A DNA stretch of 64,000 nt from a virus (Duplodnaviria > Heunggongvirae > Uroviricota > Caudoviricetes). Below are positions 12,824 to 47,529 of the stretch, in pieces (position 1 is the stretch's first letter; each line of letters begins with the position of its first letter). The DNA lies in the IMG/VR virus record IMGVR_UViG_3300023174_000099, positions 1-64,000 of that record. One strand, written 5' to 3'. The notes below the pieces were generated by a model. The model searched no databases. It was not told the origin of the DNA and was given only the letters and a program-made list of their open reading frames with translations. Position numbers and translations under genes: made by a program.

Positions 12824-12906
12824 GGCTGGGTAGAGGAGTTTGGTTATCTCGCCGCGCTCATAACGCGGGCTTTTACACGCCGGTTCAAATCCGGCCCCAG
12901 CAACCA
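12824..12906 (+). tRNA. tRNA-like gene, anticodon CAT (Met/initiator-like); irregular (G1-A72 mismatch, 10-nt variable region)
   Basis: T-arm gccggTTCAAATccggc, anticodon stem ccgcg/cgcgg with loop cuCAUaa, 3' CCA. The minus-strand ORF translation here contains the GFEP signature. Confidence 0.4.
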
Positions 12907-21452: not shown

Positions 21453-21462
21453 AATATATCTT

Positions 21463-21491
21463 GACTTTTCGAGCATAATTTGTTATAACAA
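21463..21491 (+). promoter_or_regulatory. sigma70 promoter: TTGACT-17-TATAAC
   Basis: aaatatatcTTGACTtttcgagcataatttgtTATAAC. Confidence 0.45.
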
Positions 21492-21532
21492 ATGCATAGT
21501 CGCTGACGATTTGTAATAAAAATGGACAGCAC

Positions 21533-21560
21533 GCGAGTTCGACTCTCGCCGTCTCCACCA
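21533..21560 (+). other. tRNA 3'-half-like element (T-arm gcgagTTCGACTctcgc + 7-nt acceptor strand + A + CCA) with no recognisable 5' half
   Basis: Matches canonical T-arm, acceptor and CCA geometry. No complementary 5' acceptor strand found within 90 nt upstream. Confidence 0.35.
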
Positions 21561-21875
21561 TTTACGGGGACGACTTGGAAATCGACTGACATTACATAGA
21601 CCTTTCCGAGACTATTGACTGGCAAAGTGCCATAATTAACTGCAAACGATAACGTTGCATTCGCGCTAGCTGCATAAGCTAGACGACAGGCGGTGGGAGC
21701 CTTGGAACAGAATCCCACACTCAAAGGAGAGATATGCGTAACATTTGGACAATACCTTTTAATAATAATTATTATATTTGCTGGAAAGACAAACAAGGTA
21801 AGACCCAGCATCGTCCAATGACTGATGCAGAAGATCGTGCCTACTTTACCTCCAAAGACCCTGAAAGAACCCTAA

Positions 21876-27019: not shown

Positions 27020-27106
27020 GAGGGCGTGGCGAAACTGGTTATACGCGCGAGACTTAAAATCTCGTGGATTGATTCCGTGTGGGTTCGAGTCCCACCGCCC
27101 TCACCA
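27020..27106 (+). tRNA. tRNA-Leu (anticodon TAA), type II with long variable arm
   Basis: Acceptor gagggcg/cgccctc, anticodon loop cuUAAaa, T-arm gtgggTTCGAGTcccac, CCA. Confidence 0.75.
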
Positions 27107-27296
27107 GATCTAGGAGAACACAATGCGAGTAATTATTCAATCAGTTTATCGTCTTCGCGATAAATTCATTACAGCTTATTATGCGTATCCTCAGTTCTCT
27201 CTAGAGATTGAGGACAAGATGGCCAGTGAACTTACATTTCTGCAAAGGCTGAAAGTGCCTTTTACACTGGAAATGAAGGTCGAGCAAAAATAATCC

Positions 27297-27325
27297 TTGA
27301 CTTTGTTGCCCAATTTGTCTATATT
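27297..27325 (+). promoter_or_regulatory. sigma70 promoter: aataatccTTGACT-17-TATATT
   Basis: Sequence. Confidence 0.5.
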
Positions 27326-27344
27326 ACATTGAAAGGAAACGGGA

Positions 27345-27620
27345 ATGACTATTGATGAGATTCGCGATCAACTTCGGCAGGGAACCCTAGAGGTTCACTT
27401 CAAGAAGAAGGACGGCTCAGTTCGTCGTATGATCTGCACTACACACACTGATGTGCTTGGTGATTCCTCAGAAAGCACTCGTAGCGCTCCCGTTTTTCAG
27501 AATGAGATTGTAACCGTATGGGACATGGAAGCCGATGCTTGGCGTTCCTTCCGGTTTGATAGTATTATTAATTTTGGACCTGTATCGCCCCCGCCTTCTA
27601 AGCGGTCGTTAAAAGCGTAA
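27345..27620 (+). CDS. Hypothetical protein; 3' end runs into a degenerate tRNA-like element
   Basis: RBS aaaggaaacgggaATG. Confidence 0.45.
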   Translation: MTIDEIRDQLRQGTLEVHFKKKDGSVRRMICTTHTDVLGDSSESTRSAPVFQNEIVTVWDMEADAWRSFRFDSIINFGPVSPPPSKRSLKA

Positions 27621-27657
27621 TTGGAGTATGCAGGTTCGAGTCCTGCTAGGTTCACCA
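27577..27657 (+). other. Degenerate tRNA-like element (good T-arm gcaggTTCGAGTcctgc, acceptor, ACCA; no foldable anticodon arm)
   Basis: ggacctg/taggttc acceptor pairing with wobbles; the internal region does not fold into D or anticodon arms. Confidence 0.3.
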
Positions 27658-27727
27658 GTTTGCCGAAAAGGGTAGCTCCCCTGTTAGTGCCTATACACTA
27701 ACTAGGCAAAGTCTTATAGGAGACAAA

Positions 27728-28306
27728 ATGTACAGAGAAATTAAAGAAAATGAACTAAGAATAGATAGCTCACTAAAGTATGCTTACTTTCTAGATAAGA
27801 ATCATCCACTAGCAACTGGTAACTCATATAGGGTTTACTACCATAGGCATATAATGTCAATGAAGCTAGGCAGATGGGTTACTTCAGAAGAAGTTGTTCA
27901 TCACAAAGATGAAAACCGTTCCAATAACTCAATAGATAATCTAGAATTAACAACTAATAGTGAACATGCTAGGCTACATCAAACTATATTAGTAGATATA
28001 ACCTGTCAATGTTGTAATACCATGTTTAAACCAAAAGACTCAGATCAGATTTATTGCAGTCAAAAATGTGCTTCCTTAGCTAGACAGAAAAAGAGTCATA
28101 ACTCTTTTGATAAAAGCTTATTGGAAAAACAAATTTGGGAGCTTGGATTTACACAGACAGGTAAAATATATGGCTACTCAGATACTGGTATTAAAAAGTT
28201 AGCCAAAAAGTTAAATTGTGCTTTACCTCCTCCATATTTTCATAATAAAATACGAAGTTCCGAGGAAAGACTAAATTCATATTATTCGGATGTAGCTCAG
28301 CGGTAG
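27728..28306 (+). CDS. HNH homing endonuclease with C-terminal zinc ribbon; 3' end overlaps tRNA-Asn
   Basis: HHKDENRSNNSIDNLELTTNSEHARLH is an HNH motif; CQCCN...CSQKC; leader motif GGGTAGCTCCCCTG upstream. Confidence 0.75.
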   Translation: MYREIKENELRIDSSLKYAYFLDKNHPLATGNSYRVYYHRHIMSMKLGRWVTSEEVVHHKDENRSNNSIDNLELTTNSEHARLHQTILVDITCQCCNTMFKPKDSDQIYCSQKCASLARQKKSHNSFDKSLLEKQIWELGFTQTGKIYGYSDTGIKKLAKKLNCALPPPYFHNKIRSSEERLNSYYSDVAQR

Positions 28307-28361
28307 TAGCTCTTGTCTGTTAAACAAGTGGTCGCAGGTTCGATCCCTGCCATCCGAGCCA
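28286..28361 (+). tRNA. tRNA-Asn (GTT)
   Basis: Acceptor tcggatg/catccga, loop cuGUUaa, T-arm gcaggTTCGATCcctgc, CCA. Confidence 0.75.
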
Positions 28362-28377
28362 GTTTTTGGAGATAACC

Positions 28378-28545
28378 ATGCTAGAAATAGCTATTGCACT
28401 ATACGTAATTGTCGGAATCATTACGTTTCTAACGGCGATCTCCGATAAATATGTTAAGTTAAACTCTAAACTAACAACTATTTTTGGTTTACTTAGTTTC
28501 GTTTGGCCCATCCTTTGGCTAGTTTATCTAGTCGATGAGCTATAA
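28378..28545 (+). CDS. Small membrane protein (55 aa, below the ORF-track cutoff)
   Basis: ATG after RBS tggagataacc; two hydrophobic segments. Confidence 0.35.
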   Translation: MLEIAIALYVIVGIITFLTAISDKYVKLNSKLTTIFGLLSFVWPILWLVYLVDEL

Positions 28546-28573
28546 AATATTGTGGGCCTGTATTTCAAAGGTA

Positions 28574-28648
28574 GAAAATGCTCCTCATAAGAGCTAAGAT
28601 GGGAGTTCGAGTCTCTCCGGGCCTACCAAGATAGCTGAAAAGGGTAGC
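28574..28648 (+). tRNA. tRNA-Met (CAT)
   Basis: Acceptor gggcctg/cgggcct (2 GU), loop cuCAUaa, T-arm gggagTTCGAGTctctc, CCA. Confidence 0.6.
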
Positions 28649-28701
28649 TCCCCTGTTAGTACCTATATGCTAACTAGGCTAATGCCTTATAGGAGGCTAA
28701 A

Positions 28702-29295
28702 ATGTTAATTTCAGAGAAAGAAGAACTTATAGCTTTAATATTAAGTGACTTAGATACAAGTATCTTACATAGATATAATATAAACTTTACTATTTTTTGT
28801 AATGCCATAGCTAGTGGTGAAAATCTCCACTCCAAGTTGGGTGTAAGTTACAATAGTTTAAGTAAAATAATTAAGGACTTGTTTCCCAATAAAAATAAAG
28901 GTAAACTCCTAAATTATGTATTATCTTTAGTAGATCACAAAGTTTGTACTAGTTGCGAAAAATTCTTGCATACAGAAGATTTTAGATTAAACTCAAGCAA
29001 TGCTGATGGTCTTAATGCACATTGCAAAATGTGCCATGCTGTAGTTACTTATAAAACACAAAATTATAGACAATCAAACTATAATGCTAGAAAGGCTCAG
29101 AGAACTCCCAAATGGGCGAACCTTGAGACAATAAAAGAGTTTTATTCTAAGTGCCCAGAAGGCTACCATGTAGATCATATAATACCTTTGAACGGGGAAT
29201 TAGTATGCGGATTACATGTTGAGAATAACCTTCAATATCTAACAGCGCAAGAAAATATTCAAAAGAGCAATAAGTTTGTGCCTTATAGTATATGA
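28702..29295 (+). CDS. HNH homing endonuclease with zinc-finger region
   Basis: EGYHVDHIIPLNGELVCGLHVENNLQYLTAQEN is an HNH motif; CTSC..CKMCH; conserved leader motif upstream. Confidence 0.75.
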   Translation: MLISEKEELIALILSDLDTSILHRYNINFTIFCNAIASGENLHSKLGVSYNSLSKIIKDLFPNKNKGKLLNYVLSLVDHKVCTSCEKFLHTEDFRLNSSNADGLNAHCKMCHAVVTYKTQNYRQSNYNARKAQRTPKWANLETIKEFYSKCPEGYHVDHIIPLNGELVCGLHVENNLQYLTAQENIQKSNKFVPYSI

Positions 29296-29858
29296 CAACA
29301 ATTCTTGCACTAGACATGTCGGGAACTCCTCGTGCATGGATCAATTGCGACGAAGCCATTAGCTATCATGCTAAAGACCTCGTCGCATGGTCACTTGGCG
29401 AAACTGTCGCTGAGTATCACGGAGGGTTCAATCGTATAACCGGAAAGCAGAGCAAGCTTGAAACTAGCAGTATTATTGCTATTAAAGGCTCCGAGTTCCA
29501 TAAACATACTAAAGTTCTTCTAACAAATCCTACCCTTTTTGCTAGAGACAGGCATTTATGTGCTTATTGTGGGTTTACCCATACCAATCATAGATTTTTT
29601 AGCCGCGATCATATTGTGCCACGTTCGCGTGGTGGTAAAGACGAGTGGACTAATGTGGTTACAGCCTGCGTGCCTTGTAATCAAGAGAAAGGCGCTAAGA
29701 CTCTTAATGAGTCTGATATGAGTCTTATTTATGTTCCCTATGCTCCTAATCACTATGAGAATATGATTCTTAAGAACAAACGTATTCTAGCAGATCAAAT
29801 GGAATATCTCCTAGCAGGAGTTCCAAAACACAGTAGGGTGTGGTGGCCGACCGTTTAG
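29292..29858 (+). CDS. HNH endonuclease (McrA-like)
   Basis: CAYCG...DHIVPRSRGGKDEWTNVVTACVPCNQEK. Confidence 0.75.
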   Translation: MTTILALDMSGTPRAWINCDEAISYHAKDLVAWSLGETVAEYHGGFNRITGKQSKLETSSIIAIKGSEFHKHTKVLLTNPTLFARDRHLCAYCGFTHTNHRFFSRDHIVPRSRGGKDEWTNVVTACVPCNQEKGAKTLNESDMSLIYVPYAPNHYENMILKNKRILADQMEYLLAGVPKHSRVWWPTV

Positions 29859-29913
29859 GCATCTGATTGCAACCCAGATTCAAGCAGGTTAAATTCCTGT
29901 CCACACCTCCAAT

Positions 29914-29987
29914 GCCGGTATAGTTAAGTGATATAACAGTTGCCTTGTAAGCATCAGTTCAGAGTTTGATTCTCTGTTCCGGCACCA
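29914..29987 (+). tRNA. tRNA-Thr (TGT)
   Basis: Acceptor gccggta/ttccggc (1 mismatch), loop cuUGUaa, T-arm cagagTTTGATTctctg, CCA. Confidence 0.6.
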
Positions 29988-29988
29988 C

Positions 29989-30064
29989 GTACCCTTAGCT
30001 CAATGGTTAGAGCGACCGCCTTTTAAGCGGTAGGTTCCGGGTTCAAGTCCCGGAGGGTTCACCA
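29989..30064 (+). tRNA. tRNA-Lys (TTT)
   Basis: D-arm gctcaatggttagagc, loop cuUUUaa, T-arm ccgggTTCAAGTcccgg, CCA. Confidence 0.7.
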
Positions 30065-30071
30065 TAATTAC

Positions 30072-30145
30072 GTCGGTGAAGTGTTACGGTAGCACGGCGG
30101 TCTCCAAAACTGCAAGCCAGAGTTCGACTCTCTGCACCCTCGCCA
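30072..30145 (+). tRNA. tRNA-Trp (CCA) with two adjacent acceptor-stem mismatches (2-71 U-U, 3-70 C-C)
   Basis: Anticodon stem gcggt/actgc with loop cuCCAaa, T-arm cagagTTCGACTctctg, CCA. Confidence 0.5.
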
Positions 30146-30146
30146 T

Positions 30147-30220
30147 TTCCCGTTCGTCTAAAGGTAGGACCCTAGACTTTGAATCTGGTTATCGTGGTTC
30201 GAATCCACGGCGGGAAACCA
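30147..30220 (+). tRNA. tRNA-Gln (TTG)
   Basis: Acceptor tttcccg/cgggaaa, loop cuUUGaa, T-arm cgtggTTCGAATccacg, CCA. Confidence 0.7.
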
Positions 30221-30410
30221 ATTAGGAGATTATTGTGCTTCTTAGTACTTACGAACAAAATAATAGAATTGCTAAAATTCATAGAGAAGACGAAACTTTC
30301 GTCGTCTATATGTATGAAGATAATATTTTAAAAGAGCGCAGACCTCTTATTGGTTATTCTGAGCAATATGCTGAGAACTGCGCTGAAAACTGGATTACAG
30401 GAATTATTTA

Positions 30411-30620
30411 ATGTTTCTAAAAGCAATTTGGTCAGAAGGTTGCCCCAAGCGGGAATATACAGCGGGTCACATGGGCGACGCTCGTGGTGAAACGCTAGAA
30501 GAAGTTTGTAATGATCTAGCCTCTCGTAAGGAATGGTTCGCGCGCAAGTATAAAAACTTGCGATATGATGGGATGCGACTATTTCTTAGCGAGGAAGAAG
30601 CTAGAGAAAGTTTTGGGTGA
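30411..30620 (+). CDS. Hypothetical protein (69 aa); 3' end abuts tRNA-Ser
   Basis: ORF track. Confidence 0.4.
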   Translation: MFLKAIWSEGCPKREYTAGHMGDARGETLEEVCNDLASRKEWFARKYKNLRYDGMRLFLSEEEARESFG

Positions 30621-30703
30621 GTTGGCTGAGCGGTCTAAAGCGACAGTTTGCTAAATTGTTGTACTTAACGGTACCGAGGGTTCGAATCCCTCACTCACCT
30701 CCA
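30616..30703 (+). tRNA. tRNA-Ser (GCT), type II
   Basis: Acceptor ggtgagt/actcacc, loop uuGCUaa, long variable arm gtacttaacggtac, T-arm gagggTTCGAATccctc, CCA. Confidence 0.7.
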
Positions 30704-30718
30704 TTAAAATAGATGTTG

Positions 30719-30747
30719 ACTTGTCACCCTAACTAGGGTATATTACG
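30719..30747 (+). promoter_or_regulatory. sigma70 promoter: TTGACT-17-TATATT with CCTAACTAGG-like spacer
   Basis: TTGACTtgtcaccctaactagggTATATT; spacer motif shared with the promoter at 32381. Confidence 0.5.
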
Positions 30748-30773
30748 TTATTCTCTTTAAGAAAGGTTAATTT

Positions 30774-31565
30774 ATGAATTTTAAGATTATCGCCGTATCA
30801 GCCCTAGCTCTTACTCTAGCTGCTTGCTCGCGTGTTGAGACTGGCCAGTCAGCTATCCGCGTCAACTTTGATAAGACCATTGAAAAGGAAGAACTACTTC
30901 CAGGTTCGTTTAATCAAACTCTATTTGGGGATGTTCTTCTGTTTCCCGTCAAGGACGTTTCTGTATCTGTAGAGGATCTAACTCCTCTAGCGTCGGATAA
31001 CAGCACTGTTGCAGACTTTGACGTATCAATCATCTACAACATTAATCCAAGCTCAGTAGCTGATATCTACACAACTAAGAGCCGTTCATTCCATGCTACG
31101 GACGACGAAGGCCACACCTATTTGATGTTCAATTATATGCATCAGGTTGGTCGCAATGCGGTCTATAAGATCGCTCGCCGGTACGAATCGCTGAAGATGA
31201 ATGATAGCCGAGCTGAGATTGAGAACTCTATTCGTGAAGAAGTTGTTCGTTCGCTTCAGGAAGAAAAGCTTGATACCTCAATTAATATCTCGCAGGTTCT
31301 AGTCAAGCAGATTATTCCTGCTAAAAACATCGTTCAGTCAGCTAACCTTCTGGTTCAGGCTCAGAACGAGCGTAAGCGTAAGGCTGTTGAAGTCGATACT
31401 GCTAAGCTAGAAGCTGAACGTATTGCGGCTCTGAATGCTAACGCTGGTGCGACCAAGTACATGGAAGCTACTGCTATCGTTACGATTGCGGAAGCGGTTG
31501 CTGCTGGTAAGGTTAACACGATCGTAATTCCATATGACTTCAAGGGCATTGTGAACGTAAAATGA
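30774..31565 (+). CDS. SPFH/band-7 (prohibitin/HflK-like) domain lipoprotein
   Basis: Signal plus lipobox LTLAAC; C-terminal Ala/Glu-rich coiled region typical of SPFH proteins. Confidence 0.5.
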   Translation: MNFKIIAVSALALTLAACSRVETGQSAIRVNFDKTIEKEELLPGSFNQTLFGDVLLFPVKDVSVSVEDLTPLASDNSTVADFDVSIIYNINPSSVADIYTTKSRSFHATDDEGHTYLMFNYMHQVGRNAVYKIARRYESLKMNDSRAEIENSIREEVVRSLQEEKLDTSINISQVLVKQIIPAKNIVQSANLLVQAQNERKRKAVEVDTAKLEAERIAALNANAGATKYMEATAIVTIAEAVAAGKVNTIVIPYDFKGIVNVK

Positions 31566-31819
31566 TTATTTGGCTTATCGGATTCCTAGCGTTTATCTTT
31601 TATCGGACTTTTAAGGCCGGTATGAAGTCAGATAGTCTATTCTACATGGATAGAATGGAATATACTACTGACTATACTAAGAAAGTACTAGTACGTAAAT
31701 TTGATGGAGATAAGTTATTTTTCTACGGTATTACAACTATTGTCGTAGGACTCTCATGGCCTATCTCGTTACCCTGCATTGGCATTTACCTACTAGGCAA
31801 GCGATTCACTGCTAAGTGA
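31562..31819 (+). CDS. Small membrane protein (2 TM), translationally coupled to the SPFH gene
   Basis: ATGA overlap; hydrophobic IIWLIGFLAFIF and ITTIVVGLSWPISLPCIGIYLLG. Confidence 0.45.
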   Translation: MIIWLIGFLAFIFYRTFKAGMKSDSLFYMDRMEYTTDYTKKVLVRKFDGDKLFFYGITTIVVGLSWPISLPCIGIYLLGKRFTAK

Positions 31820-31831
31820 TTTATAGGAGGC

Positions 31832-32224
31832 GTGAGTATGAGACTATTCTTCAAGTCTAAAGATGGCGGTCCAGATAGCTCTGTAACAGGCTACTGGCTT
31901 ATCGAGTCAAAGAAGCTCTTTTCTATTGTGCTTCTCAAATTTGACGGTCGTAGCCGTGAAGCTTATCATACTCACGCCTTCAATGCATGGAGTTGGATTC
32001 TTCCTAGTGGACTCGGCATGACGGAACATCTAGAAGATGGGTCTAGAAAGTTTCTCAAGCCTGATTCCTTTGTGTTTACTCCTCGTGATCGGATGCACAA
32101 AGTAGACAGTAATGGCACTACTTGGGTTCTGTCTTTTAGAGGCCCTTGGTTGGACAATTGGAAAGAAATTAACGAGCATGGTCATCAAACGCTGACACAT
32201 GGTCGCAAAGTTATGGACACTTAG
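31832..32224 (+). CDS. Hypothetical protein (130 aa)
   Basis: RBS ataggaggcgtgagtATG. Confidence 0.5.
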   Translation: MSMRLFFKSKDGGPDSSVTGYWLIESKKLFSIVLLKFDGRSREAYHTHAFNAWSWILPSGLGMTEHLEDGSRKFLKPDSFVFTPRDRMHKVDSNGTTWVLSFRGPWLDNWKEINEHGHQTLTHGRKVMDT

Positions 32225-32289
32225 CTCAGTAGGTAGAGCGCAGCCCTCTTAAGGCTTAGGTCACAGGTTCGATCCCTGTAGTGTCTACC
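32215..32289 (+). tRNA. tRNA-Lys (CTT)
   Basis: D-arm gctcagtaggtagagc, loop cuCUUaa, T-arm acaggTTCGATCcctgt, CCA. Confidence 0.55.
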
Positions 32290-32290
32290 A

Positions 32291-32368
32291 TATGCCCGTA
32301 GCTCAACTGGAATAGAGCGTCTGATTACGAATCAGAAGGTTGAGGGTTCGAGTCCTTCCGGGCATACC
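32291..32368 (+). tRNA. tRNA-Arg (ACG)
   Basis: Acceptor atgcccg/cgggcat, loop uuACGaa, T-arm gagggTTCGAGTccttc, CCA. Confidence 0.7.
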
Positions 32369-32380
32369 ATAAAATACATA

Positions 32381-32409
32381 TTGACTTAGTAGCCTAACTA
32401 GGCTATATT
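32381..32409 (+). promoter_or_regulatory. sigma70 promoter inside the tRNA array: TTGACT-17-TATATT, TSS about 3 nt before tRNA-Ile
   Basis: TTGACTtagtagcctaactaggcTATATT. Confidence 0.55.
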
Positions 32410-32418
32410 ACATAAATG

Positions 32419-32504
32419 ATGTTCCATAGCTCAGCTGGTAGAGCGCGACACTGATAATGTCGAGGTCACTGGTTCGAACCCAGTTGGAACAACCATGGGG
32501 ATGT
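32419..32504 (+). tRNA. tRNA-Ile (GAT)
   Basis: Acceptor tgttcca/tggaaca, D-arm gctcagctggtagagc, loop cuGAUaa, T-arm actggTTCGAACccagt, CCA. Confidence 0.75.
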
Positions 32505-32505
32505 A

Positions 32506-32571
32506 GCTCACCGGGGAGAGCGTCTGATTTGCATTCAGAAGGTAGCAGGTTCGAGTCCTGTCATCTCCACC
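32506..32571 (+). tRNA. tRNA-Ala (TGC)
   Basis: Acceptor ggggatg/catctcc, loop uuUGCau, T-arm gcaggTTCGAGTcctgt, CCA. Confidence 0.7.
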
Positions 32572-32575
32572 ATTT

Positions 32576-32650
32576 TCTAGATGTGGCCTAATGGTAAGGC
32601 ACCGCGTTTGGGGCGCGGGGACTGGGAGTTCGAGTCTCTCCATCTAGACC
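32576..32650 (+). tRNA. tRNA-Pro (TGG)
   Basis: Acceptor ctagatg/catctag, anticodon stem ccgcg/cgcgg with loop uuUGGgg, T-arm gggagTTCGAGTctctc, CCA. Confidence 0.7.
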
Positions 32651-32722
32651 AGTTTTTGCTGAAAGGGTAGCTCCCCTGTCTGTCCTCCTACGACAGAATA
32701 AGCAATTCAAGTAGGAGTTAAA

Positions 32723-33223
32723 ATGAATGGTACTTTATACAGAATTATAAATATGAAAAATGATAAGTCGTATATTGGTAAGACTTATCAAGATATGCAC
32801 ACTAGACTATCTCAACACATACGTGACGCTAATAAGTTTCCCTATAGACCCCTTTATGCTGCTATGAACAAGTACGGACTAGATTCTTTCTCTATGGAAA
32901 TCATTGGAGAATTTCCAGAAGGTATCCTGGAGCATAAAGAAATAGAATATATAGAAATATACAATTCTTACGGCCAGAGAGGCTATAACGCCACAAAAGG
33001 TGGGGATGGAGTTAGATACCTAGACCTCCCAGAAGAAGAAATAGTAAATCTATATAAATCAAATACTATAAAATACATAGCTAATTTCTATAGCGTAGAT
33101 CATAGTACTATACGAAAAATACTACTAAATCAAGGTATCTCCCTAAGAAATCATAAGGAAGATAGTATTTTTGCGGAAAGTAAAAGAAAAAATGCATCTA
33201 AAATACTTTTAGCACATTCATAA
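32723..33223 (+). CDS. GIY-YIG homing endonuclease, interrupted: in-frame TAA at 33221 separates the catalytic domain from a conserved C-terminal domain (33224-33378)
   Basis: LYRIINMKNDKSYIGKTY is a GIY-YIG motif. After the stop the same frame reads VYENTYECAKDLIEIG...VCTGNRKSYKGLIFKYDI, homologous to the C-terminus of the 13129 gene. Confidence 0.7.
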   Translation: MNGTLYRIINMKNDKSYIGKTYQDMHTRLSQHIRDANKFPYRPLYAAMNKYGLDSFSMEIIGEFPEGILEHKEIEYIEIYNSYGQRGYNATKGGDGVRYLDLPEEEIVNLYKSNTIKYIANFYSVDHSTIRKILLNQGISLRNHKEDSIFAESKRKNASKILLAHS

Positions 33224-33251
33224 GTATATGAAAATACTTATGAATGTGCTA
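33205..33251. repeat. Perfect 17-bp inverted repeat (agcacattcataagtat / atacttatgaatgtgct) flanking the in-frame TAA of the GIY-YIG gene
   Basis: Direct reading of the sequence; loop atgaaa. Confidence 0.7.
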
Positions 33252-33384
33252 AAGATCTTATTGAAATAGGTATAATTAGTCCAACACTGTCTATTAAGTC
33301 AATACAGCATGGTATAAGAAATGTATGCACAGGTAATAGAAAGTCCTATAAAGGCTTAATATTTAAATACGATATTTAGTAGAT

Positions 33385-33460
33385 AGACTAGTAGCTCAGT
33401 GGTAGTAGCGCTGCTTTTACACAGCAGAGGTCATAGGTTCGAAACCTATCTAGTCTACCA
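33385..33460 (+). tRNA. tRNA-Val (TAC)
   Basis: Acceptor agactag/ctagtct, anticodon stem ctgct/agcag with loop uuUACac, T-arm ataggTTCGAAAcctat, CCA. Confidence 0.7.
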
Positions 33461-33462
33461 GT

Positions 33463-33536
33463 TCCCCCTTCGTCTAACGGTAGGATAGCAGACTCTGACT
33501 CTGTATGTGGTGGTTCGAATCCATCAGGGGGATCCA
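33463..33536 (+). tRNA. tRNA-Gln (CTG)
   Basis: Acceptor tccccct/aggggga, loop cuCUGac, T-arm ggtggTTCGAATccatc, CCA. Confidence 0.6.
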
Positions 33537-33537
33537 T

Positions 33538-33612
33538 GACGGCGTAGTGTAGTTGGTAACACGCAGGCTTGTGGTGCCTGAGTCACGGGTTCGAATCCCG
33601 TCGTCGCGACCA
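33538..33612 (+). tRNA. tRNA-His (GTG) with mismatched top of acceptor stem (1-72 G-G, 2-71 A-C) and no encoded G-1
   Basis: Perfect anticodon stem caggc/gcctg with loop uuGUGgu, D-arm gtgtagttggtaacac, T-arm acgggTTCGAATcccgt, CCA. Confidence 0.5.
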
Positions 33613-33621
33613 GAGTTAAAT

Positions 33622-33706
33622 GCGGATGTGGCGGAATTGGTAGACGCCCTGGTTTTAGGTACCAGTATCGAAAGGTGTGGGGGTTCGAGTCCCTTCATCC
33701 GCACCA
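33622..33706 (+). tRNA. tRNA-Leu (TAG), type II
   Basis: Acceptor gcggatg/catccgc, loop uuUAGgu, long variable arm, T-arm gggggTTCGAGTccctt, CCA. Confidence 0.7.
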
Positions 33707-33707
33707 T

Positions 33708-33793
33708 GGGAGCGCGGCTTGAGTTGGAGAGCAGCGGCTGACTGTAAATCAGTTCCTTCGGGTGAGTAGGTTCGAATCCTTCCGCTCCCACCA
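33708..33793 (+). tRNA. tRNA-Tyr (GTA), type II
   Basis: Acceptor gggagcg/cgctccc, loop cuGUAaa, variable arm tccttcgggtga, CCA. Confidence 0.65.
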
Positions 33794-33798
33794 TATTT

Positions 33799-33873
33799 GG
33801 CCCGGTCGTCTAGTGGCTAGGATACTTGGTTTTCACCCAAGAGAAGCGGGATCGAAACCCGTTCGGGCTACCA
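33799..33873 (+). tRNA. tRNA-Glu (TTC)
   Basis: D-arm gtctagtggctaggat (Glu-like), anticodon stem cttgg/ccaag with loop uuUUCac, T-arm gcgggATCGAAAcccgt, CCA. Confidence 0.7.
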
Positions 33874-41068: not shown

Positions 41069-41896
41069 ATGACAGTAGATGAGCTATTAACAAAAGAGAA
41101 CATATACTTTCGTTCCAGTGGAAAAGACCATGTAGTATGCTGTTTAAATCCAGATCACGAGGATAAAAACCCCAGTATGAGAATCGACAAGATTACTGGG
41201 GTTTTTAACTGTATGTCTTGTGGATTCTCTGGTAATATATTCGAGCACTTTGGTGGAAAACCTAATTGGCTTGGTATTCAGAGAGAGCGATTTAAAAGTC
41301 TAGTACAGAATAAACTAAAGGAGACGGTAGGTCTAGAGATTCCAGAAAATGCTACTCCCTTCGATCAGGAGTGGCGAGGTATCTCTAAAGAGACTTTCCG
41401 TAAATTTAGAGCCTTCCAGCATCCAGACTATGTTAATAGAGTGGTGTTTCCTATCACTGATATGTCTGGTAAGATCAGAGTGTTTTGTGGTAGAGACTTA
41501 GCGAACAACACACCCAAGTATATGTTCTATCCCGCAGAAACACACATACCTTTGTTTCCTATGGTAAAACCCTATAATGGCGATATTATTCTAGTAGAAG
41601 GCATCTTTGATATGCTAAACTTACACGACAAAGGTTTAACCAATGTTTGTTGTATGTTTGGTGTTAATAAGGGAAGCATTGACAAGCTCAAGCTTCTAAA
41701 AGTACAGAACATAAGCTCGGTAACTCTAATGCTAGATTCGGATGAAGCAGGGCAGCGCGGAGCTGAAAAGCTTAAAGCAGAGTTAGAGGGCCTACACGTA
41801 AGCGTAAACAACTTTGTATTACAAACAGTAAAAGATCCAGGTGAATTGACAGCCTCTAAAGTGATCAAATTAAAGGAGACCCTATACGGTGGCTAA
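41069..41896 (+). CDS. DNA primase (zinc-binding + TOPRIM)
   Basis: CCLNPDHEDKNPSM...CMSCG zinc ribbon; TOPRIM VEGIFDMLNLHD ... DSDEAG. Confidence 0.7.
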   Translation: MTVDELLTKENIYFRSSGKDHVVCCLNPDHEDKNPSMRIDKITGVFNCMSCGFSGNIFEHFGGKPNWLGIQRERFKSLVQNKLKETVGLEIPENATPFDQEWRGISKETFRKFRAFQHPDYVNRVVFPITDMSGKIRVFCGRDLANNTPKYMFYPAETHIPLFPMVKPYNGDIILVEGIFDMLNLHDKGLTNVCCMFGVNKGSIDKLKLLKVQNISSVTLMLDSDEAGQRGAEKLKAELEGLHVSVNNFVLQTVKDPGELTASKVIKLKETLYGG

Positions 41897-43634
41897 TGTA
41901 GCATTAATTGAGACTAAACCAAGCAGAACAAACTTCTTCAGTGAATTTGATGAAGCCTTTGAATTTGATAGGTTTGCCCTATGTTCTGACCCAACAATTA
42001 AAAAGGTCCTAAAGAAAAACGTAGATATTGAGTTCAATCCAGATAACTACGAATGGGTAATTCTAGTAGGTGCTGACACAGTAAAGTACTTTACTAAGGC
42101 ATCAGTAACAGACCATAGTGGCAAGATTGTTGATGAGAAGTTTCTCCCGGTAATCAATCCAGCTATGGTATCGTTCAAGCCTGAGTCTGCTAGAACTTGG
42201 GAAGAATCCAAAAAGAATATCGTCGGGTATATCACTGGGTCTAAGAAAGTAGTAAAGTATGCTACTGACAAGATCTATGGTATTCGTGACAGCGAGCAGC
42301 TTAAGAAGTTCTTGCAGGCTGCCATTGATAGTCCAAATTCTTTCATCGGTCTAGACTCTGAAACTTCCGGACTGTATCCTAGAGACGGTTACATTCTAGG
42401 TGTTAGTGTTTGTTATGAACGCGATCATGGCGTTTATATTGACTCAGACTGCATTGACGAAGAAGCATCATGGCTTTTTCAGGAACTATTCAACAAGAAG
42501 ATCGTAGTACTACACAACGCTAAGTTCGATATTCCCTTCTTCAAGTTCCATATGGGATGGGAGTTTCCTCGGTATGAAGATACAATGCTTCTTCACTACT
42601 GCATTGATGAAAATCCCGGTACCCACGGACTTAAGCAACTAGCTCTTCAGTTTACAGAATACGGTGACTATGAACAGCCAATGTATGACTGGATTGCTGA
42701 TTACTGTAAGCGTAACAGTGTTCTAAAGGAAGACTTCACCTTCGAAGCTATTCCTTTTGAAGTTATTCAGCCATACGCTGCTATTGACGCTATTGTAACT
42801 TTTCTTATCTACGCCAAGCTAAAGCCCTCCGTTCAGAAGAACAAGAAGCTAGACAAGGTATACAATGAGATCTTGATTCCAGCATCTGACTTTCTAATTG
42901 ACGTTCAGGACAATGGAGTTCCGTTCGATATGGATCGCCTAAAGTTTGGTCAGCTAGAAATGCAGAAGAGCATCGACGAGTCAGTTGCAGAGTTGTACTT
43001 AGAGCCTAAGATCAAAGAGTTTGAAGAATTTCAGGGTAAGCAGTTCAATCCTAATAGTGTCATGCAGCTACGCACGCTATTGTTTGATTTCTTAAAACTT
43101 TCCCCTACAGGTAAAAAGACTGGTACTGGTTCCAATTCAACTGATGCCGAAGTGCTTCAGGAACTAGCAGGACAACACCCCGTACCTCAGTTAATCCTTA
43201 ACATCCGTCAAAAGAGTAAGATTAAGAATACTTATCTGGACAAGATTATCCCACAGCTAGATAGGGATGGTAGACTTCGTACTAGCTTTAATATTCACGG
43301 CACTACTAGCGGACGACTAAGCTCTAGTGGTAAACTGAATATGCAGCAGCTACCACGAGATAACCCCGTTGTCAAGGGAGCCATCAAGGCAAAGCCTGGC
43401 CACAAGATCATCTCGATGGACTTGACCACTGCGGAAGTTTACGTAGCCGCAGTATTATCCAAAGATCCAGCACTTCAAGATGTGTTTAGAACTGGCCAAG
43501 ATTTTCACTCTACAGTAGCTCACCAGGTATTTAAGCTGGATTGCGAAGTAAGCGAAGTTAAAAAACTATATCCGCTTATGCGGCAAGCTGCTAAAAGCAC
43601 TACATTCGGGGTTAGTAACATAGCCCTCCTATAA
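41889..43634 (+). CDS. polA: DNA polymerase I family (family A), N-terminal part: 3'-5' exonuclease + palm up to motif B; truncated inside motif B
   Basis: Exo I FIGLDSETSGL; ends ...MRQAAKSTTFGVSNIALL* where RQAAKxxxFG is motif B. Confidence 0.75.
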   Translation: MANVALIETKPSRTNFFSEFDEAFEFDRFALCSDPTIKKVLKKNVDIEFNPDNYEWVILVGADTVKYFTKASVTDHSGKIVDEKFLPVINPAMVSFKPESARTWEESKKNIVGYITGSKKVVKYATDKIYGIRDSEQLKKFLQAAIDSPNSFIGLDSETSGLYPRDGYILGVSVCYERDHGVYIDSDCIDEEASWLFQELFNKKIVVLHNAKFDIPFFKFHMGWEFPRYEDTMLLHYCIDENPGTHGLKQLALQFTEYGDYEQPMYDWIADYCKRNSVLKEDFTFEAIPFEVIQPYAAIDAIVTFLIYAKLKPSVQKNKKLDKVYNEILIPASDFLIDVQDNGVPFDMDRLKFGQLEMQKSIDESVAELYLEPKIKEFEEFQGKQFNPNSVMQLRTLLFDFLKLSPTGKKTGTGSNSTDAEVLQELAGQHPVPQLILNIRQKSKIKNTYLDKIIPQLDRDGRLRTSFNIHGTTSGRLSSSGKLNMQQLPRDNPVVKGAIKAKPGHKIISMDLTTAEVYVAAVLSKDPALQDVFRTGQDFHSTVAHQVFKLDCEVSEVKKLYPLMRQAAKSTTFGVSNIALL

Positions 43635-43967
43635 AGTAATTTATAGGTAATAAACCTGCTCAATTGCTGGAAGCCTAAGTCTAAAATTAGATATGGTAAT
43701 CAGCAGCCAGAGGCGATAGGGATATCGTCAAATGGTTCAGAGACTCACAGAATTTCTAGAACAGAAGTTGCTGGGGTAATAAATTTTATATCTTGACTTT
43801 TTTTGGTCGAAATATAGTACCATCTTAATATTAAAAATTAATTTGGTGTTTATTACAAAAGGCAGGTATCTACGTATGGAATTAAATTTAGAAAACTATA
43901 CTAACAAATGGTAGAAAACGTAGATAAAGGTATAGTCCGTGCCCTACTAAAGTAGGGACTAACATGT
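43635..43967 (+). other. 333-nt in-frame non-coding insert splitting polA (candidate ORF-less group I intron or true split-gene junction); contains a TTGACT promoter-like element and hairpin ccctactAAagtaggg
   Basis: No ORF. Length is a multiple of 3. Flanks reconstitute motif B as FG-x-x-YQAG. Confidence 0.4.
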
Positions 43968-44528
43968 ATGTATCAGGCTGGTGCTCCTACTGTAGCCGAT
44001 CAGATCAATAAAGAAGCCCGCAGTAATAATATGGATTACAGATTCTCCCTACAGGAAGCTCAAGATGTTATTGACCAGTACTTCAAGACCTTCAAAGGAC
44101 TTAAGAGCTGGATTGATGTAAACAAGGAGTTCATTTCCAAGAATGGTTACATCTATTCTTTCTTTGGTCGTAAGCGCAGACTACCAAATGTTCTATCTAG
44201 CGATGGTGGCATCCGTAGTCATGCTGTAAGATCTGGTCTAAACTTCCTCGTGCAGTCTCCTAGCTCAGATGTTAACTTGCTAGGTGGCATTGATATGAAT
44301 AAGTTCATTAAGGACAACAAGATGAAGACTCGGATCTTCGCTCTAGTTCATGACTCTATTCTAGCAGAAGTACCAGAAGACGAGATCGAGTTGTATACCA
44401 CTACCCTTAAGAAGTTCATTCAAAAGGATCGTGGGCTTTCGATTCTTGGATGCCCTATCGGATGCGATTTCGAAATGGGTGATGACTACTCTCTAGGTAA
44501 GTTTGAGAAACAGTATGGAATACTATGA
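43968..44528 (+). CDS. polA: DNA polymerase I family, C-terminal part (rest of motif B through motif C)
   Basis: MYQAGAPTVADQIN..., LVHDSILAEVPEDE (motif C). Confidence 0.7.
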   Translation: MYQAGAPTVADQINKEARSNNMDYRFSLQEAQDVIDQYFKTFKGLKSWIDVNKEFISKNGYIYSFFGRKRRLPNVLSSDGGIRSHAVRSGLNFLVQSPSSDVNLLGGIDMNKFIKDNKMKTRIFALVHDSILAEVPEDEIELYTTTLKKFIQKDRGLSILGCPIGCDFEMGDDYSLGKFEKQYGIL

Positions 44529-45036
44529 GTATAGAAATGAGATTCCTTTAAATACTCTGAAGGCGTGGCGAGACCAAGTTCTCGCCACAGCCAACTTCCA
44601 ACCTATTGGCTGGACTGGATTACCTAAGGAACCTTATAGACACTGGGCCGCTTATCCGAAGAATGATGAGCTTTATAAGTCTATATTTGATTGTATGAAT
44701 TATTCTTTCAAGGAAGATGGTTTTAATCTCAAGCCTGAAAGAACAATCGTAAATATGTACAACCACGGAGATAGTTCATGGTTGCATACAGATTCTGAAG
44801 AAGGTATTTGCTGGACTGCTATTCTATTTATGAATGAGTACTGGAACAGCAATTGGGGTGGGGACTTCGTTATGGTAGACTCCGATGGGGAGATACTACA
44901 CGCAGCTGCCCCTACTCCCGGTAAGTTTATTCTATTCCGTGGTGATATTCTTCACGGTGCTAGACCAGTATCTAGAGAAGCCCAGTTCGCCAGAATGGGA
45001 GTTGCGTTTCAGTGTATAAACGATTTGAAGATGTAA
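44503..45036 (+). CDS. 2OG-Fe(II) oxygenase (prolyl 4-hydroxylase-like)
   Basis: HxD...H triad: WLHTDSEE ... ILHGARPV. Confidence 0.55.
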   Translation: MRNSMEYYEYRNEIPLNTLKAWRDQVLATANFQPIGWTGLPKEPYRHWAAYPKNDELYKSIFDCMNYSFKEDGFNLKPERTIVNMYNHGDSSWLHTDSEEGICWTAILFMNEYWNSNWGGDFVMVDSDGEILHAAAPTPGKFILFRGDILHGARPVSREAQFARMGVAFQCINDLKM

Positions 45037-46224: not shown

Positions 46225-47529
46225 ATGAAAGCAATTATAAGTAATAAAATCTATATGGTAGTAGAGCCAGCTTTGCATCGGGCATTAGAGAAGGAACTTA
46301 CGTACAAAGTTCCTTCTTACAACGCACCTGATCAATTTACGATTATTAAAAATCTAAAGGTAATCAATTTCAATATCGCCGGAGGAAAGATGCTAGTAGC
46401 CTTTCCAGTTGGTAGAACCGATTTAATTCCTAAAGGTTATTCAGTCGAAGATAAGCGGTCATACAATCAAATAGAAGATTTTCCAAAGTTCCAATTCGAA
46501 CTGAGGCCAAGCCAAAAAGAGATAGTGTACGATATGCAGGATAACTGCATCATCAACGCTAAGGTGGGTTTTGGTAAAACATTCTGCGGGCTTGCTCTTG
46601 CAGCGAGACTAAAAGAGAAAACACTGGTCGTGACACATACTGTTGCCCTTAGAAACCAGTGGGAGAAAGAAGTAGTAAAGACACTAGGTATCAAGCCCGG
46701 TATTATTGGTAGTGGTAAATTTAATATTGATAGCCCAATTGTGGTATCTAATATTCAATCACTAGTTAAATATATACCACAGCTTAATAGGGAGTTTGGT
46801 TTGCTAATCGTGGACGAAATGCACCACGTTAGTAGTCCTACTTTTACCAAAGTAGTGGATGCTATGTTCTCTAGATACAAGGTCGGACTCTCGGGTACAA
46901 TTGAGAGAAAAGATCAGAAGCACGTAGTATTCAAAGATTACTTTGGCTCTAAAATTTATAGACCAGAACGAGAGAATACGATGACACCAACTGTTGATGT
47001 TATCAATAGTGGGGTAGCTTTCTCGAATACTAATGCCTCCTGGGCTGAAAAAGTTAATGTGCTAAAAGAATCATATCTTTATAAGAATCTCGTAGTTCGT
47101 CTAGCAGATCACTATTCCTCTCTAGGACATAAGGTTCTTATTGTATCGGACAGAGTAGAGTTTCTTAAAGAATGTTCTGAGTTATCCGAGTATCCCTCAG
47201 AAGTTCTTATTGGTGCGCTAAAGGAAGATCAAAGAGAAGAAGTCATAAATAAGATTTCCTCTGGTGAAGTAAAGCAACTGTGGTCTACACAGAGCTTAGT
47301 CTCAGAAGGTATTTCTATTAACCCTCTAAGCTGTATTATTCTAGGGACTCCCCTAAATAATATGCCGCTGTTAGAGCAGCTTATAGGTCGTATTCAGCGA
47401 CAGGCAGAGGGTAAGCTCGATCCAGTAGTAGTTGATATTAAACTAGAGGGCTGGACCGTAAATAATCAGTTTAATAACAGGCTTGGGCATTACATGAAAC
47501 AGGGCTATGAAATTAATTTCATAAAATAG
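46225..47529 (+). CDS. SF2 DNA helicase (DEAH box; UvsW/RecG-like)
   Basis: Walker A AKVGFGKTF, DEMHH box, motif VI QLIGRIQRQ. Confidence 0.65.
   Translation: MKAIISNKIYMVVEPALHRALEKELTYKVPSYNAPDQFTIIKNLKVINFNIAGGKMLVAFPVGRTDLIPKGYSVEDKRSYNQIEDFPKFQFELRPSQKEIVYDMQDNCIINAKVGFGKTFCGLALAARLKEKTLVVTHTVALRNQWEKEVVKTLGIKPGIIGSGKFNIDSPIVVSNIQSLVKYIPQLNREFGLLIVDEMHHVSSPTFTKVVDAMFSRYKVGLSGTIERKDQKHVVFKDYFGSKIYRPERENTMTPTVDVINSGVAFSNTNASWAEKVNVLKESYLYKNLVVRLADHYSSLGHKVLIVSDRVEFLKECSELSEYPSEVLIGALKEDQREEVINKISSGEVKQLWSTQSLVSEGISINPLSCIILGTPLNNMPLLEQLIGRIQRQAEGKLDPVVVDIKLEGWTVNNQFNNRLGHYMKQGYEINFIK

Follow-up and report, generated by a model that had tools for sequence, protein, structure and literature searches.

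A group I intron lacking an endonuclease gene in motif B of a T5-like phage DNA polymerase gene

The polymerase locus

The window analysed here comprises the first 64,000 nt of IMG/VR virus record IMGVR_UViG_3300023174_000099 (Caudoviricetes) and is part of a 98.7-kb metagenome contig. It contains the gene of a family A, T5-like DNA polymerase, which is split inside motif B by a stretch free of open reading frames (ORFs). Two ORFs carry the halves of the gene:

41889..43634 (+): ORF1, 581 amino acids, with the tail ...RQAAKSTTFGVSNIALL before its stop
43968..44528 (+): ORF2, 186 amino acids, with the N-terminus MYQAGAPTVADQ

As a preliminary description of this DNA had pointed out, the 333 nt between the ORFs (43635-43967) contain no + strand ORF of at least 30 amino acids according to the ORF list; the sole ORF listed there (47 amino acids, minus strand) is regarded as spurious. 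The same description had taken both ORFs for parts of a single polA gene, and this is borne out by the joined protein (...FGV+MYQAG..., 761 amino acids), which yields one full-length match to Pfam DNA_pol_A (262 bits) in addition to a 3'-5' exonuclease domain. Against T5-like (Demerecviridae) polymerases it aligns as one colinear tblastn piece that spans the junction, at approximately 42-46% identity. A megablast search with the whole gene against the phage collection gave no match, and since there is no close cultured relative, protein and distant searches were required.

Given that the window is a metagenome assembly, the interruption might be explained by a chimeric join or by a spurious stop, the latter also considered in the preliminary description as a resequencing error. 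However, the 801 nt from 43400 to 44200, which span the insert, are identical in four independent assemblies, one of them the ENA contig and the other three Logan assemblies of separate runs, and errors of sequencing or assembly therefore do not account for the split. The insert is moreover homologous to introns of cultured phages, and the probability of an artefact is negligible.

Identification of a group I intron

Rfam models, whose use on this region the preliminary description had proposed, identify the insert: RF00028 (group I intron) matches positions 43603-43958 with 76.7 bits (gathering score 50, E 1.6e-19) over its full length (model positions 1-253 of 253), and this is the sole intron match in the 64-kb window. 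The only other Rfam match in the region, to a S. pombe small nucleolar RNA model, can be attributed to chance (18.9 bits against a gathering score of 80). An intein was rejected: the insert has an in-frame stop seven codons from its start and no long ORF in any + frame. The gene can thus be described as follows:

41889..43612 (+): DNA polymerase exon 1, which covers the 3'-5' exonuclease domain and, as far as motif B (...RQAAKSTTFG plus GT of the Val codon), the polymerase domain
43613..43966 (+): group I intron of 354 nt, subgroup IA-like, without endonuclease ORF, based on Rfam, the minimum free energy (MFE) fold and covariation
43966..43966 (+): terminal G (omega-G) of the 3' splice site, ...ACUAACAUG/UAUGUA, like ...GUAACAUG/ in Proteus phage PM135 and ...AAUAACAUG/ in the metagenomic intron L039
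43967..44528 (+): DNA polymerase exon 2, starting with the Val codon's T and MYQAGAPTV... and running to the stop, comprising the end of motif B and motif C

Exon 1 is based on the ORF list and the Pfam domains DNA_pol_A_exo1 and DNA_pol_A, with a 3' boundary taken from helix P1, its U.G pair and the intron-less alleles; exon 2 is based on the ORF list and on intron-less relatives, in which FGILYQAG or FGVMYQAG is read through the same point. Exon 1 ends at U43612, in a U.G wobble within P1, and the intron ends at G43966. Because T43613 equals T43967, shifting both splice sites by +1 would lead to the same mRNA; the boundaries 43612/43613 and 43966/43967 were chosen since no other choice combines a U.G pair at the 5' splice site with an intron ending in G. 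The predicted ligated junction is ...CATTCGGGGT/TATGTATCAGG... (GGGGU/UAUGUA at the RNA level), the predicted ligation product reads ...RQAAKSTTFGVMYQAG... and the predicted junction peptide of the spliced polymerase is STTFGVMYQAGAPTVADQINK. Accordingly placed, the V and M codons at the junction are exon sequence, whereas the ORF1 tail SNIALL with its stop is intron read through in frame. The limits given in the preliminary description (43635-43967) therefore need correction: 333 nt is merely what separates the in-frame stop from the following ATG, and its division into 3 x 111 nt has no meaning beyond both ORFs sharing one frame.

Structure and covariation of the ribozyme

The helices of the hand model (P1, P2, P3, P4-P5, P6-P6a, P7, P7.1, P7.2, P8 and P9), together with P10, are positioned as follows:

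43608..43627 (+): P1, exon GGGGU plus intron UA (43608-43614) paired with the internal guide UAGCCCU (43621-43627), with the wobble U43612.G43623
43618..43622 (+): P10 guide strand ACAUA, able to pair with UAUGU (43967-43971), the five bases that open exon 2, as read from the sequence
43628..43647 (+): P2 hairpin CCUAUAAA-GUAA-UUUAUAGG, in the hand model and the MFE fold; 7 of 8 pairs change on both sides
43655..43660 (+): P3 5' strand CCUGCU, paired with GGCAGG at 43861-43866; in the MFE fold
43665..43705 (+): P4-P5 domain, P4 at 43665-43670/43700-43705, P5 at 43674-75/43695-96 plus a distal hairpin
43707..43735 (+): P6 (43707-08/43734-35) and P6a (GGCGAUA-GGGA-UAUCGUC, 43712-43729)
43742..43745 (+): P7 5' strand GACU in the conserved element GUUCAGAGACU, paired with AGUC at 43934-43937 in GGUAUAGUCC
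43748..43773 (+): P7.1 hairpin CAGAAUUUC-UAGAACA-GAAGUUGCUG; 100% paired, 5 pairs compensatory
43776..43856 (+): P7.2 (GUAAUAAA 43776-83/UUUAUUAC 43849-56) with an expansion of ~65 nt; assigned by hand and by analogy to relatives
43861..43866 (+): P3 3' strand GGCAGG, from covariation
43867..43926 (+): P8 (UAUCUACGU 43867-75/ACGUAGAUA 43918-26) with a 42-nt loop
43934..43937 (+): P7 3' strand AGUC, from the Rfam alignment and the covariation set
43942..43957 (+): P9 hairpin CCCUAC-UAAA-GUAGGG, from the Rfam alignment and the MFE fold

An unconstrained MFE fold recovers P1, P2, the long-range P3, P4-P5, P6-P6a, P7.1, P8 and P9 (z = -5.26 against shuffles). For the covariation analysis 16 distinct introns were collected from the phage collection (PM135, PR1), IMG/VR (L026, L028) and one metagenome scan (L032-L049), and aligned with MAFFT after removal of the P8-loop contents; P7.2 was excluded from the score on account of a one-column register shift between two subgroups, and P9 was scored though misaligned. 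Standard pairs make up 89.4% of the cells of the alignment; sliding the 3' partners by 1-3 columns lowers this share to 32-45%. Of the 66 pairs, 44 change on both sides, and none of 500 shuffles attains the observed values. Support is found in individual helices as well. P3 is fully paired in all 16 sequences with compensatory changes in 4 of its 6 pairs, P6a (also in the MFE fold) is 89% paired with all 7 pairs changing on both sides, and P8 is 95% paired with compensatory changes in 9 of 9 pairs. P4 is nearly invariant (97.9% paired), while P6 and P7 are invariant, the GACU of the P7 5' strand being present in 16/16 members in agreement with the Rfam consensus. A short hairpin homologous to P7.2 occupies the same place in every relative, and all relatives have hairpins homologous to P9, though with differing sequences. 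The hairpin that had been noticed earlier next to the 3' junction (CCCTAC-TAAA-GTAGGG) does exist at 43942-43957, and can now be identified as P9.

The pairing between guide and exon follows the exon sequence: GGGGU/GCCCU in the window, GGCAU/GUGCU in L028, GGCAU/GUGCC in L026 and GGGAU/GUUCC in PM135. Pairs of P1 change on both sides along with the exon, and 12 of 15 family members retain the splice-site U.G. For P10 the same pairing is found in L028, and CAAG/CUUG in PM135. Subgroup IA is marked by two hairpins, P7.1 and P7.2, between P7 and P3', for example in T4 td and SPO1. Both are present here, and the IA-like assignment is based on them; one P2 hairpin and one P9 hairpin were found in addition.

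Overall, the proposed P1-P9 pairings are all found, as are the U-G at the 5' splice site, the terminal G and P10; with the Rfam match, the covariation and the intron-less alleles described below, this supports the small ORF-less group I intron that had been put forward as one of two candidates. On the basis of its sequence, we consider that the insert is very probably competent to splice. By standard group I chemistry, the pre-mRNA would fold into the P1-P9 ribozyme, in which exogenous guanosine would attack after U43612, held in P1 by its wobble pair with the guide. The freed 3' OH of exon 1 would then attack after the terminal G43966, with exon 2 aligned by the 5-bp P10, to give one mRNA for a single 761-aa polymerase. 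On unspliced RNA, ribosomes would stop seven codons into the intron.

Uninterrupted and interrupted relatives

All 14 related IMG/VR polymerases that cover motif B are uninterrupted and read straight through the predicted ligation point. L009 and L010, which share 98% amino-acid identity with the polymerase of the window, have no intron at the exact codon and read TTCGGTATTCTATATCAGGCT (FGILYQAG), whereas L013 reads FGVMYQAG, likewise without interruption. The intron-less site sequence is TTCGGTATTCTATATCAGG, and in comparison to these alleles the predicted ligated FGVMYQAG gains or loses zero codons. The intron site is the codon after F762-G763 in the O-helix (Klenow numbering).

A homologous intron is located at the same codon in PM135, where the junctions can be fixed independently through its intron-less sister PL1: TTCGGGAU/UAAC...GUAACAUG/CUUGUACGG, to be compared with UUCGGGGU/UAGUAAC...CUAACAUG/UAUGUAUC in the window.

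Loss of the endonuclease gene

No intact homing endonuclease ORF is present in the intron (no + strand ORF of at least 30 amino acids within 43613-43966). In its relatives an endonuclease gene fills the P8 loop. The ORFs of PM135, PR1 and L028 match Pfam LAGLIDADG_3; those of L032, L037 and L039 are homologous to them by sequence and share the two LAGLIDADG-type motifs with them. They measure 220-261 amino acids (in L037 the longest open frame reaches 294), start (MEINKENYDNLK...) after the P8 5' strand, directly so in L039, and stop in overlap with the P8 3' strand (...NGNRKTR, ...NRKTR or ...NRKIR, each followed by the stop). Two short reading frames at the corresponding positions of the window are read as remnants:

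43876-43914 (+): mini-ORF in the P8 loop, putative N-terminal remnant of the endonuclease, MELNLENYTNKW and a stop
43904-43927 (+): putative C-terminal remnant in another frame, TNGRKRR and a stop

The first part of the loop (ATGGAATTAAATTTAGAAAACTATACTAAC...) encodes MELNLENYTN, against MEINKENYDN in PR1 (7 of 12 residues identical); none of 20,000 random-composition trials equalled this score, while the DNA identity was equalled in 31 of 20,000. The other frame (...ACAAATGGTAGAAAACGTAGATAA) gives TNGRKRR and a stop, where the relatives have INGNRKTR and a stop. In total, approximately 10 N-terminal and 7 C-terminal codons would be left. A six-frame search of the window with a hidden Markov model of six family endonucleases yielded no LAGLIDADG gene of the intron's family (best E 5.4, i.e. 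noise).

The hexamer TTGACT, earlier described as a promoter-like element, is indeed present at 43793-43798 (+), within the ~65-nt expansion of P7.2. When aligned with the relatives, its TTGAC falls on the -35 hexamers of promoters that are intact there:

L039, 1700-1728 (-): TTGACA-N17-TATAAT, 12/12
L037, 1909-1937 (-): TTGACT-N17-TATAAT, 11/12
L028: TTGACA-N17-TAGAAT, by eye

Those of L039 and L037 are situated in the P7.2 expansion, upstream of P3', P8 and the endonuclease start, and given this position inside the expansion, endonuclease transcripts would start within the ribozyme. The -10 element of the window has decayed to TATAGT (spacer 14) or TAGTAC (spacer 16), and no + strand promoter passes a promoter scan. 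The hexamer is therefore a relic of the endonuclease-gene promoter without a usable -10 hexamer, and not an element from which the second polymerase half is transcribed.

This bears directly on the second candidate of the preliminary description, a polymerase of two polypeptides. Here the RNA would be kept as it is, and ORF1 (581 aa) would assemble non-covalently with ORF2 (186 aa), translated from the ATG at 43968 on a transcript initiated at TTGACT. It is true that ORF2 starts with an ATG, that a weak AGGGA lies ~9 nt upstream, and that GenBank lists split family A polymerases as two coding sequences (CDSs), for example in PM135 and PR1. Yet the polymerase would be broken within the O-helix, two residues ahead of the catalytic Tyr in motif B, and the ATG is simply the Met codon of FG-V-M-YQAG, a position that holds Met or Leu in uninterrupted relatives. 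Besides the lack of a + strand promoter in the scan and the alignment of TTGACT with the -35 of another gene's promoter, the AGGGA is tied up in the stem of P9, the gap between the halves is filled by a complete and covarying ribozyme, and the 'split' polymerases of GenBank hold the same intron. A two-polypeptide polymerase is thus unnecessary as an explanation and extremely unlikely.

The insert is probably a deletion derivative of a mobile intron, in whose relatives a LAGLIDADG endonuclease gene lies in the P8 loop and is driven by a sigma-70 promoter within P7.2. Of the promoter only the -35 hexamer would be left in the window, and of the endonuclease ~10 codons from the start and ~7 from the end.

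A comparable pair was observed among the related introns. The extracted ribozyme cores of L040 and L042 are almost identical, but P8 contains ~777 nt (an endonuclease gene) in the former against 79 nt in the latter, where the -10 of the promoter is altered from TATAAT to TATAGT. This is a second, independent event of endonuclease loss.

Divergent exon sequence beside the intron

The exon sequence adjoining the intron differs from that of the intron-less relatives:

43453..43612 (+), continuing to 43970 in exon 2: divergent exon-1 patch, read as a co-conversion tract

Over 164 nt (-160 to +4 of the junction) the identity to L009 is 71.3%, against 96.9% in the exons upstream and 97.7% downstream. 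In numbers, 47 differences are located in the patch and 61 in the other 2122 nt (Fisher p = 7e-28), and 8 of the 12 amino-acid differences of the whole protein fall within it. L009, L010 and L011 mutually agree in this region (160/164 and 146/164 identical), so that the window version is the odd one out. The GGGGU paired with the guide sequence is itself part of the patch.

Homing with co-conversion of the exon produces just such a divergent tract beside an intron, and the patch is best read as the scar of an event of this kind, with a diverged donor. Past homing is indicated by this flanking patch together with the presence/absence polymorphism at one site among close relatives. Homing would have come first, with the endonuclease lost afterwards. 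Taken together, a history of co-conversion and endonuclease loss is likely for the intron of the window.

Some observations weigh against these readings. Splicing itself is deduced from the sequence. The P7.2 stem was assigned by hand and is absent from the MFE fold, and P9 is only 52% paired in the automatic alignment, which results from register shifts by MAFFT. The case for endonuclease remnants amounts to ~17 codons, of which the C-terminal part overlaps the P8 3' strand, where constraint on the RNA contributes to the similarity. The search for an endonuclease acting in trans spanned 64 kb of the 98.7-kb contig. Finally, no donor of the patch was found: L028 (62%) and L013 (73%) are distant, and none of L028, L013, L012 and L014 is closer in the patch than elsewhere. 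With no donor matched, co-conversion is the best reading of the mosaic patch, not a demonstrated event.

It might also be argued that the intron is dead for splicing and that the polymerase gene has become a pseudogene, the phage genome being defective or in decay. The decay of both endonuclease gene and promoter implies that the element is not under selection for mobility. On the other hand, all columns that are invariant in the 16-member family, including those of P4, P6, P7, J6/7 and J8/7, are intact in the window, and all helices pair. Both exons are open and, outside the patch, 97% identical to functional relatives. In addition, the same sequence occurs in several samples, as expected of a replicating phage, and this is apparently its only polymerase. 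We therefore judge a dead intron to be very unlikely.

Comparison with other phage introns

Group I introns in family A polymerases of phages have been known since SPO1, and the element of the window is of this well-known kind; it represents neither a new mechanism nor a new way of building a polymerase. Such introns are located at E. coli Pol I site 674 in SPO1, SP82, Bastille and Pf-WMP3, at 676 in phiL7, and at 881 in phiI and W31 (PMC3428280). They are common in Bastillevirinae, usually with HNH endonucleases (PMC11878797). As in the SPO1-type systems, a phage IA ribozyme associated with a homing endonuclease lineage interrupts a conserved catalytic segment of an essential family A polymerase, with an in-frame stop soon after the 5' splice site. 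The site in the O-helix of motif B, however, is not among the three listed in PMC3428280, and the endonuclease of the relatives is LAGLIDADG instead of HNH, with the copy of the window having none. A literature search found no published description of introns in polymerases of T5-like/Demerecviridae phages.

Among Demerecviridae, the introns of Providencia phage PR1 and of Proteus phages PM135 and VTCCBPA139 share the codon, the polymerase family and the 3' end ...UAACAUG with the window, and have a homologous ribozyme core (blastn 76-80% over ~120-130 nt). Unlike the window, their introns are ~1110 nt long, with an intact 261-aa LAGLIDADG ORF in P8 and without the P7.2 expansion. Core identity to the window is 55-58% for the Demerecviridae introns and 76% for the nearest relative, the metagenomic L039.

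The T4 td, nrdB and sunY introns (IA2) have P7.1 and P7.2 between P7 and P3' as in the window, and endonuclease-bearing relatives express the endonuclease from its own promoter inside the intron. Introns of the nrdB type with decayed endonuclease genes form a precedent for endonuclease loss. The T4 introns differ in host gene, in endonuclease (GIY-YIG or HNH) and in the position of the ORF (P6a or P9 loops against P8 here). Deletion derivatives are also mentioned for the group I intron that the lysin gene carries in phages of Streptococcus thermophilus (Foley et al. 2000, as related in PMC11878797), and ORF-less introns can be mobilised by free-standing endonucleases ('collaborative homing'), as for cyanophage psbA with F-CphI (PMC6083498). 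These two cases resemble the window in that the intron has no ORF and stems from, or relies on, an endonuclease with its gene elsewhere, and in representing a stage of endonuclease loss. Unlike collaborative homing, no free-standing endonuclease gene lies beside the polymerase and no LAGLIDADG gene of the family is present in the window.

The intron itself is new, possibly belonging to an undescribed lineage within a very well-known kind of element. Tentatively, and at somewhat less than even confidence, we suggest a phage IA lineage that targets the O-helix codon after F-G in family A polymerases (with a sister group at the Walker-A region of the T5-like helicase), has an endonuclease gene of the LAGLIDADG and not the HNH or GIY-YIG type in the P8 loop, its start and stop codons adjoining the two P8 strands, and a consensus sigma-70 promoter in an expanded P7.2, and of which the window and L040/L042 may show the stage of endonuclease loss with a datable co-conversion scar. 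If so, an ORF-less copy could still spread in mixed infections by means of the endonuclease of a co-infecting relative.

Several further introns were observed in this connection. Members of the same family adjoin the GxGKT Walker-A motif in T5-like helicases of seven metagenome contigs (L033, L034, L036, L040, L042, L044 and L047), where exon 2 reads ...KTF..G.A.AAKLG.KTL; the helicase of the window (46225-47529) is uninterrupted. In metagenome contigs L049 and L041 related introns are located 2 nt upstream of the window site, directly after the F-G codons. Salmonella phage BPS17L1 (Felixounavirus, L030) has a 268-nt ORF-less intron, with a free-standing HNH endonuclease gene directly after polymerase exon 2, and by our reading the Felix-O1-like polymerase intron is 1 nt upstream of the window site. 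Motif B looks like a hotspot for introns.

Consequences for annotation and other features of the window

In GenBank PM135 (MG030347.1, L001), PR1 (KY363465.1, L029) and VTCCBPA139 (MN935203.2) are annotated with two 'DNA polymerase' CDSs that flank a 'hypothetical protein'. In each trio the outer CDSs are the two exons, and the protein in the middle is a LAGLIDADG homing endonuclease inside a group I intron of ~1110 nt that was left unannotated. As in the window, the two polymerase CDSs should be joined, which for the window gives one 761-aa product. T5-like phages and the O-helix codon of motif B can thereby be added to the known locations of phage group I introns. The relatives moreover form a series through the homing cycle, from the empty site (L009, L010) via introns with endonuclease and promoter (L039, L037, L028) to the decayed copy with its scar (window).

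Directly 3' of the polymerase, and overlapping its end, a 2OG-Fe(II) oxygenase gene is found at 44503-45036 (+) (Pfam 2OG-FeII_Oxy_3, E 8.7e-10). The other ORF adjoining the polymerase encodes 165 amino acids and is conserved in L028. The ORFs downstream of the polymerase were rejected as free-standing endonucleases, one being the oxygenase and the other having no Pfam match.

Elsewhere in the window, a two-piece (permuted) transfer-messenger RNA (tmRNA) of alphaproteobacterial type is located at 21457-21768 (+) (Rfam RF04321, 83.6 bits; RF01849, 68.7 bits), with the tag peptide ANDNVAFALAA according to ARAGORN; its type hints at an alphaproteobacterium as host. Approximately 20 tRNA genes are present in clusters at 27020-33873 (+) and 12824-12906 (+), as in T5-like phages.

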